IMG/VR virus record: IMGVR_UViG_2675903429_000009
Length of the DNA stretch: 4,515 bases
Origin: a virus
Lineage: Duplodnaviria > Heunggongvirae > Uroviricota > Caudoviricetes
Direction: 5' to 3' (one strand)
The position numbers were made by a program, and so were the translations under genes. The notes beneath the pieces were generated by a model. That model was not told the DNA's origin. It saw nothing but the letters and a program-made list of their open reading frames with translations, and ran no database searches. Numbering within the stretch: the first letter of the stretch is position 1; the number at the start of each line of letters is the position of its first letter. Positions 2,929-4,515 of this stretch are shown here, piece after piece.

Positions 2929-3126
2929 GCGCCTGTTTTTTGTAAATGCTTTCGGGAACGTTCCGGCGTCGAACAAAAAACAACCTAATTCGACACTAAA
3001 AATTTTTATTTTGCCATATATCAATAACTTAAACTGGTGGTGATGGTGACATAAAAATCAAAAAATACGCCTTTTTCCGCGAACCGCCCGCCCCGTGGAC
3101 AGGCCACCCCCACCAGGAGTACCTAC

Positions 3127-3149
3127 AAAAAAGCCGGATTGCTCCGGCT
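3127..3149 (-). terminator. intrinsic terminator of the orf81-ssb operon
   Basis: 7-bp stem AGCCGGA/TCCGGCT with loop TTGC (3132-3149). On the minus strand it is followed by UUUUU (3127-3131) and starts 15 nt after the ssb stop codon. Confidence 0.55.
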
Positions 3150-3587: not shown

Positions 3588-3829
3588 GCTGTCTGCTCTC
3601 CGGTTTTAACGTTGATGGTTGTCACCTGTTCCGCTTCGGCAATCTCCCGTTCTGTCAGCGTGGCAAAGTTTGCCGCCGTCGTGGTCATGAATGCGCTTAT
3701 CAGTTCGGGATGTGCTTTCGCGTATCCTTCCCCGGCGTTGCGGTCGATGATTTTTATCGCCACCCTCAGCCAGTGTTCTGTCAAATCAAGGGCGTGAGAT
3801 TGTGGTTTTTTGGCGTGCTTCGTTGTCAC
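3584..3829 (-). CDS. hypothetical protein (81 aa) co-transcribed with ssb
   Basis: GTG start at 3829-3827 with GAGG about 9 nt upstream; stop overlaps the ssb ATG. No family recognised from the sequence. Confidence 0.5.
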   Translation of the reverse strand: MTTKHAKKPQSHALDLTEHWLRVAIKIIDRNAGEGYAKAHPELISAFMTTTAANFATLTEREIAEAEQVTTINVKTGEQTA

Positions 3830-3874
3830 AGGCTTTACCTCACAGCAATAAAATAAAATTTTTGCATTTTAACC

Positions 3875-4103
3875 CTTCACCTGTTCACCTTTTGCAATTT
3901 TCCCTTTTTATTCATGATGTTAATGGGTTAACAGTTTCACAAAAACTATTCACCAACTGTTCACCACTGTTCACCCTTAAAGCTCAATAAAGAATCAAAA
4001 AGGTGAACAGTGAATAGTTTGGTGAACAGTTCATAAATAACTGTTCACCCTATAATATACTGATATAAAAGACATTTATTGCAGGGTGAACAGTGGTGAA
4101 CAG
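3875..4103. repeat. iteron array / putative origin of replication (P4-type TGTTCACC octamers)
   Basis: Seen in sequence: perfect CTGTTCACC at 3881-3889, 3957-3965, 3967-3975 and 4041-4049; perfect inverse GGTGAACAG at 4002-4010, 4021-4029, 4085-4093 and 4095-4103; degenerate copies at 3875-3881, 3947-3954 and 4009-4017. Adjacent copies are spaced 10 bp apart. The array is flanked and interspersed by AT-rich stretches (3841-3870, 3895-3950, 4051-4080). From memory, TGTTCACC is the phage P4 type I iteron bound by alpha protein at ori and crr. Confidence 0.75.
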
Positions 4104-4132
4104 TTATTCCATAAGTTTAATTTTTTCCATCG

Positions 4133-4429
4133 TCATTTGTGACCTATTGCACATGATGGCATCCAGTCTTCTGAATCCTCTGTCAGGGTCACATTTGAAC
4201 GCAAACCGTGCTTCGTTTTCCGTTTCATATACTCCCTGCCATATTCCGCCATTGCCCCCGGCATATCTTTACCGAAGCGCGTCAGTGTTACAGGTTTACC
4301 GAATCCGTGTGCCCTCATATATGCCAGATAGGCGTGATAAAGATACCTGCGCGGACTGAACGGAATAATTTCGGCATTACCCACTAACAGACCATCACAC
4401 ATTACCGACGACATGAGGTGTACTGGCAA
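4133..4429 (-). CDS. small ORF resembling the C-terminal region of phage/plasmid primase-helicases (possible gene fragment)
   Basis: The translation contains YLYHAYLAYMRAHGFGKPVTLTRFGKDMPGAM, which matches by eye the conserved Y-x-x-Y-x-x-W-x-(5-6)-x-P-x-S/T-x-x-x-F-G motif found near the C-terminus of P4-alpha/D5-type primase-helicases. The start is weak: TTG at 4429 or ATG at 4414, neither with a clear Shine-Dalgarno sequence, and an in-frame TAG lies at 4439-4441. The two other minus frames are open to the window edge, so a frameshifted longer gene is possible. Confidence 0.4.
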   Translation of the reverse strand: MPVHLMSSVMCDGLLVGNAEIIPFSPRRYLYHAYLAYMRAHGFGKPVTLTRFGKDMPGAMAEYGREYMKRKTKHGLRSNVTLTEDSEDWMPSCAIGHK

Positions 4430-4515
4430 TAGCGGACACTACCATTTGTTCTTTTTTTAAGCAGCCATCTGATGATATTTTTCCCTGAAGGCTGCCGGGG
4501 AGATATTCCCCAGAC

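Follow-up and report, generated by a model that had tools for sequence, protein, structure and literature searches.

The replication module of the satellite phage P4 is among the closest described counterparts of the locus considered here. The alpha protein of P4 (777 aa) carries an origin-binding domain that has been crystallised (PDB 1KA8), and alpha reportedly binds the type 1 repeats of the phage. In the P4 GenBank record, repeats with the core TGTTCACC are annotated as 'ori type 1 repeat' both in ori and in crr, the latter lying directly 3′ of the alpha gene, and most of the copies read CTGTTCACC. A second counterpart is found among the phage-inducible chromosomal islands (PICIs) of Gram-negative bacteria, of the type of EcCICFT073, where iterons separated by A+T-rich spacers come after the genes int - alpA - ... 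- pri-rep (PMC6092414), and in which Pri-Rep and the iteron ori constitute a working replicon (Fillol-Salom et al., 2018; PMC6092414). The third relevant system is an insertion sequence: IS600, of the IS3 family, makes pseudogenes in Shigella as a 1264-bp element with orfA and orfB, and it leaves a 3-bp duplication of its target.

In the window, that is, the whole stretch of 4,515 nucleotides analysed here, a 98-codon ORF on the minus strand (4133–4429, with a TTG start at 4427–4429 and its stop at 4133–4135) lies beside a cluster of iterons. We consider this ORF to be the 3′ fragment of a P4-alpha-like replication gene that was split by IS600 in a decaying satellite prophage of S. sonnei, and hence a pseudogene and a non-functional remnant; we put the probability of this reading at roughly 93%.

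An earlier note on this DNA had recognised in the ORF a motif of the C-terminal DNA-binding region of primase-helicases, and had proposed an HMM search of the 98-aa translation. Indeed, the domain match is real. The translation matches Pfam PF03288 (Pox_D5) at 44.1 bits, well over the curated cutoff of 21.4 (E = 3e-11; ORF residues 20–89, profile positions 17–84 of 86), and ORF residues 10–91 match 1KA8_A, the origin-binding domain of P4 alpha, over chain residues 17–99 of 100 (E = 1.2e-22). Judged by these matches, the ORF is the C-terminal origin-binding winged-helix domain of a P4-alpha/D5-type primase-helicase, and nearly the whole of that domain is encoded by 4133–4413. What has been lost is its front, namely profile positions 2–16 of Pox_D5 and the first ~13 residues of the crystallised 1KA8 construct. 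A search of the 98-aa ORF against NCBIfam gave no match, and a single-sequence AlphaFold model of it was poor (mean pLDDT 38).

In all relatives that we examined, this domain forms the C-terminus of a protein of 596–605 aa. The remnant protein is 99% identical to residues 506–596 of an intact E. coli protein of 605 aa, in which D5_N (162–291) and DUF5906 (325–433, the SF3 helicase core) precede Pox_D5 (496–591). Over residues 145–595 this E. coli protein shares 50% identity with P4 alpha, but it is shorter than alpha (605 versus 777 aa), and its first ~145–160 residues neither match a Pfam family nor align with the primase domain of alpha (L001 5321–7135; L010 7896–9713). Because the first ~145 residues resemble neither, primase activity can be attributed to these proteins by annotation only. 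In NCBIfam, the match of the full-length protein to TIGR01613 (P4-family primase) fell below the cutoff.

The DNA that precedes the domain on the minus strand has another origin. When 3800–4515 was compared by megablast with complete E. coli genomes, only 3800–4417 was matched, at ~99% identity and covering a 'DNA primase family protein' together with the intergenic repeats, while hits at up to 43 places per genome indicated that the rest of the query is a repeated element. Indeed, the 98 nt from 4418 to 4515 are 100% identical to copies that occur in 2881 E. coli genomes and are annotated there as 'IS3-like element IS600 family transposase', and an alignment with the intact primase locus shows identity to 4417 and none past that position. 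As an independent reference for the ends of the element, we used the copy of IS600 that strain E2865 carries within ninF (L002), which is flanked by a GCG duplication, has the ends TGAGGTGTACTGG... and ...GGCTACCTCA (TGAGGTG...CCTCA), and places the transposase stop at the equivalent of window position 4457. By this comparison the right end of IS600 occupies 4414–4515 (minus strand), with a terminal repeat that starts TGAGGTGTACTGG and a body that runs off the window edge; within it the 3′ end of the transposase gene orfB (...LGNISPAAFREKYHQMAA) closes with a TAA at 4457–4459. The four bases at 4414–4417 (TGAG) are common to the IS end and the target by chance. One copy of a 3-bp target-site duplication follows at 4411–4413 (ACA on the plus strand, TGT on the gene strand), and the remnant of the replication gene itself, at 4133–4413 on the minus strand, begins with the final two bases of codon 508 and continues through codons 509–600 to the stop.

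Since the end of IS600 takes up 4414–4515, neither the TTG start nor the TAG upstream of it nor the open frames beyond are primase sequence; all of them belong to IS600. The 5′ end of the ORF, with the codons TTG CCA GTA CAC (4418–4429), comes from the element, as do the CTC codon at 4415–4417 and the first base (4414) of the ATG that follows. This junction ATG (4412–4414) was recreated by the insertion, and one gene caller starts from the junction a protein of 93 aa (L009). The features that the earlier note had listed here can all be seen, although their meaning changes. The frame read from 4513 (...HQMAA*KKNKW*CPLLPVHLMSS...) contains the in-frame TAG at 4439–4441 and also a TAA at 4457–4459, but the TAG lies inside IS600. 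The remaining two minus frames contain no stop between 4515 and ~4400, as described; this is a distance of only ~100 nt, there is no gene in either, and the sequence is that of the insertion element. The start signals are weak, again as described: direct reading of the bases revealed no Shine-Dalgarno-like sequence before the TTG at 4427–4429, the junction ATG at 4412–4414 or the next ATG, and a promoter and terminator scan of 3800–4515 returned nothing on the minus strand, including no sigma-70-like site. As a separate observation, IS600 orfB and the primase remnant share a reading frame, with only the TAA at 4457–4459 and the TAG at 4439–4441 between them, which is probably a coincidence.

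The window stops at 4515 because draft contigs break inside IS600. All draft contigs with the junction end within the element, both those from IMG/VR (L004, L005) and those from NCBI and Logan (L006, L007). An exact-pattern scan of genome contigs for the primase/IS600 junction gave 0 matches, no record among 5426 complete E. coli genomes spanned the junction when it was used as a query, a scan of viral contigs for the opposite junction (the left end of IS600 followed by the 5′ part of the primase gene) gave 0 matches, and the phages collection yielded IS600 matches only for the junction region. Long contigs of 4.8–4.9 Mb were found by looking up the neighbouring 81-aa protein. Four of these have IS600 at the site and are 99.97% identical to the window, namely CP151357.1 (L008), L009, CP014099.2 (L011) and CP000038.1 (L014), the last of which we take to be Shigella sonnei Ss046. 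In all four, a full IS600 of 1264 bp, 99.8% identical to the copy in E2865, stands in the same direction as the primase gene, with orfA/orfB and TG...CA ends. Its flanks read GCTATCTCATGT on one side and TGTCGTCGG on the other, where the uninterrupted allele has GGCTATCTCATGTCGTCGG, and this comparison identifies a simple transposition with a 3-bp TGT duplication. With respect to length, gene content and duplication, the insertion is an unexceptional case of pseudogene formation by IS600.

The gene calls in the long contigs comprise a 5′ fragment of 510 or 495 aa with D5_N and DUF5906, the orfA/orfB pair of IS600, and a 93-aa fragment with Pox_D5; the 510-aa version consists of 508 primase codons and a Leu-Arg-stop read from the IS end. 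When IS600 and one TGT were removed in silico, a continuous ORF of 600 codons was restored, identical over residues 1–596 to the uninterrupted allele in CP179997.1 (L012). The fusion of the origin-binding domain to D5_N and the SF3 helicase in one polypeptide is thus present in uninterrupted alleles and absent at this locus, where IS600 lies between the parts. The earlier note had suggested, as one option, a longer, frameshifted gene entering from beyond 4515, and a look past that position for helicase domains in another frame. The helicase part does lie there, in the form of D5_N and DUF5906, and the gene is a pseudogene, but the two parts are in the same frame on either side of the element. 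The gene found directly upstream of the domain is an unrelated one, IS600 orfB ending at 4457, and on the note's own terms this formally counts against a frameshift.

The alleles differ at the extreme C-terminal tail of the primase (4133–4150), outside the region aligned to 1KA8. Most E. coli alleles end in ...PSCASVTNDDGKN (605 aa), the CP179997.1 allele has TAG in place of TCG and ends in ...PSCA (596 aa), and in the window an additional A at 4148 makes the protein end in ...PSCAIGHK* (600 aa).

With respect to the presumed target of the domain, the window contains an iteron cluster, the putative ori, at 3881–4103. In it, GGTGAACAG / CTGTTCACC is present in eight exact copies and in two with one mismatch; both orientations occur, and the spacers are A+T-rich. 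Counted at ≤1 mismatch, GGTGAACAG occurs 12 times where 0.96 occurrences are expected, and in 200 shuffles the count never came to 12. The ORF had been noted to end close to the first iteron, and we measure 29 nt from its stop (4133–4135) to the nearest repeat (4095–4103), so that cognate TGTTCACC iterons adjoin the gene. Each related element has a single such cluster, which lies after the stop of the primase gene and before the 81-aa ORF. Several features are shared with P4: the origin-binding domains are homologous, the TGTTCACC core is identical, the form CTGTTCACC that prevails in P4 is the repeat found in the window, and a repeat cluster lies directly 3′ of the gene. The differences are that P4 has both ori and crr whereas this element has one cluster, and that the gene is split by IS600 at this locus. 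We infer that the C-terminal domain would recognise the TGTTCACC iterons just downstream of its own gene. The finding that a PICI-type island shares both this iteron core and a related origin-binding domain with P4 suggests that the two satellite families are connected more closely in their replication modules than 'distant homology' implies.

The course of events that we propose is as follows. The ancestral gene encoded a replication initiator of ~600 aa belonging to a small integrated phage satellite, with D5_N, the SF3 helicase (DUF5906) and the winged-helix origin-binding domain in this order from the N-terminus. By homology with P4 alpha, the C-terminal domain would seat itself on the iterons and so bring the helicase onto the A+T-rich ori. 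In the S. sonnei lineage, the 1264-bp IS600 then transposed into codon 508/509 and duplicated TGT. Because the element separates the helicase from the origin-binding domain, the initiator is expected to be inactivated and initiation of replication to be abolished.

Other explanations for a short ORF with a genuine domain have to be weighed against this one. The earlier note had considered a frameshift or a sequencing indel at 4400–4450 in a continuous primase-helicase gene, to which the absence of stops from 4515 to ~4400 in the other minus frames gave some encouragement. Since those frames are IS600 from 4414 on and the two halves of the gene stand in the same frame without any indel once the element is excised, there is no frameshift to account for; moreover, the same junction recurs in four contigs of 4.8–4.9 Mb and in several draft assemblies. 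A complete 1264-bp IS600 with a 3-bp target duplication explains the break, and we rejected frameshift and sequencing error as exceedingly improbable. The window itself shows just one side of the insertion, and the draft contigs with the junction (L004, L005, L006, L007) all stop in IS600, as would also be seen with an assembly chimera, or with an IS600-mediated deletion or inversion after which the 5′ part was missing from the genome. In the long contigs, however, both halves flank a single IS600 and the 3-bp direct duplication is perfect, which is the hallmark of simple transposition, and this leaves next to no likelihood for a chimera or for IS-mediated loss of the 5′ half, which we likewise rejected.

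A different question is whether the remnant is still made as a protein. The earlier note had raised the option of a domain expressed on its own as an iteron-binding or replication-regulatory protein. Such a product would act either as a regulator of replication or as a dominant-negative blocker of ori. Either IS600 orfAB or the primase fragment upstream would have to supply its transcript by read-through, with the junction ATG or the TTG serving as the start codon. Read-through transcripts are plausible, since the remnant is co-directional with both of these, and the regenerated ATG at 4412–4414, the 93-aa product called from the junction by one gene caller and the nearly complete state of the domain (residues 17–99 of the 100 in the 1KA8 chain) are in line with such a product. 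Against this stand the two stop codons between the remnant and orfB, the result that the TTG and both ATGs were seen to lack a preceding Shine-Dalgarno-like sequence and the strand a promoter-like site, the truncated front of the domain, its confinement in all relatives to the C-terminus of a 596–605 aa protein, and the decaying state of the host element. We therefore regard stand-alone expression as very unlikely and, because its start codons are accidents of the insertion junction, as unsupported by the locus. Given that read-through is possible and that residues 17–99 of 1KA8 are kept, a free iteron binder retains a low probability. A very unlikely extension would be that the freed domain, made by IS600 read-through and from the junction ATG, occupies the TGTTCACC iterons or forms mixed dimers with alpha-type initiators, so that incoming P4-type satellites, which share these iterons, would have their replication disturbed by the defective island. 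Most probably, the remnant of the IS600-split gene is not expressed as a functional protein.

The biological weight of this conclusion is small, since it adds one more IS-made pseudogene to an IS-rich Shigella genome, in a defective satellite prophage. An IS600-interrupted pseudogene of a known initiator family, in a known kind of satellite island, is already known biology. In practical terms, a short ORF with a real domain that is bounded by a stop and lies near the edge of a window or contig should be checked first for an IS terminus, and draft contigs that break inside IS600 hide the other half of the gene.

The surroundings of the gene fit a PICI-like island. In the long contigs the element lies between cspD and clpS clpA, in the order int - (IS1) - AlpA - ... 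- DUF4222 - primase::IS600 - ori - 81 aa - SSB - 64 aa - protease/capsid - ..., so that int, an AlpA-type regulator, the primase-replicase and an adjacent iteron ori are assembled in one small island (gene order and Pfam, L008–L014 and L003). This order is kept in relatives from E. coli at ~91% identity, in which the primase is intact and a 'ClpP-like prohead protease/major capsid protein fusion protein' is encoded. The order int - alpA - ... - pri-rep with iterons and A+T-rich spacers after it is that of EcCICFT073-type PICIs, and in CP015228.1 (L010) the allele is followed by Phage_cap_E, HDPD, AlpA and Nu1-type genes. The variant in the window differs by having the ClpP-like protease/major-capsid fusion and SSB instead, and in that its replication module is inactivated and the copy is predicted to be defective. 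As far as the precomputed Pfam assignments of the genes called in L008–L014 show, the P4 hallmarks Psu, Sid and Delta are absent, and a search of the whole window with Rfam at gathering thresholds found nothing.

The island is decaying at several points, as judged from IS600, IS1 and a deletion in the protease-capsid gene. The IS1 lies between int and alpA (3927–4624 in L008, L009 and L014), downstream of an integrase gene that looks intact. The deletion, of 13 bp near 1442 (1360–1450) relative to CP179997.1, is a second inactivating lesion and splits the protease-capsid gene, which is 626 aa long when intact, into parts of 381 and 252 aa. CP000038.1 has an additional IS21-type insertion near the clpS end (L014 13783–15752).

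Lastly, we observed several minor differences between the window and the longer records. At 241/242 the window lacks 174 bp that both the S. sonnei-type long contigs (L008 13626–13799) and the IMG/VR contig L004 contain, which may reflect either a real deletion or the way in which the window was produced; a 93-aa gene thereby loses its 3′ end and reads 86 aa in the window. Positions 518–757 are a run of 240 N, for which the long contigs hold 277 bases (L008 13073–13349), 37 more than the masked stretch; these bases span the last part of the capsid gene and the sequence that immediately follows. A G-rich sequence of ~74 bp (…CCTCCTGGTGGGGG.GGCCTGTCCACGGGGCGGG…CGCGGAAAAA…) occurs twice in direct orientation with 88% identity, once in the window downstream of SSB (~3061–3133) and once downstream of the capsid gene, at the place covered by the N run (L008 ~13213–13285). 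This repeat could be a packaging or regulatory site.
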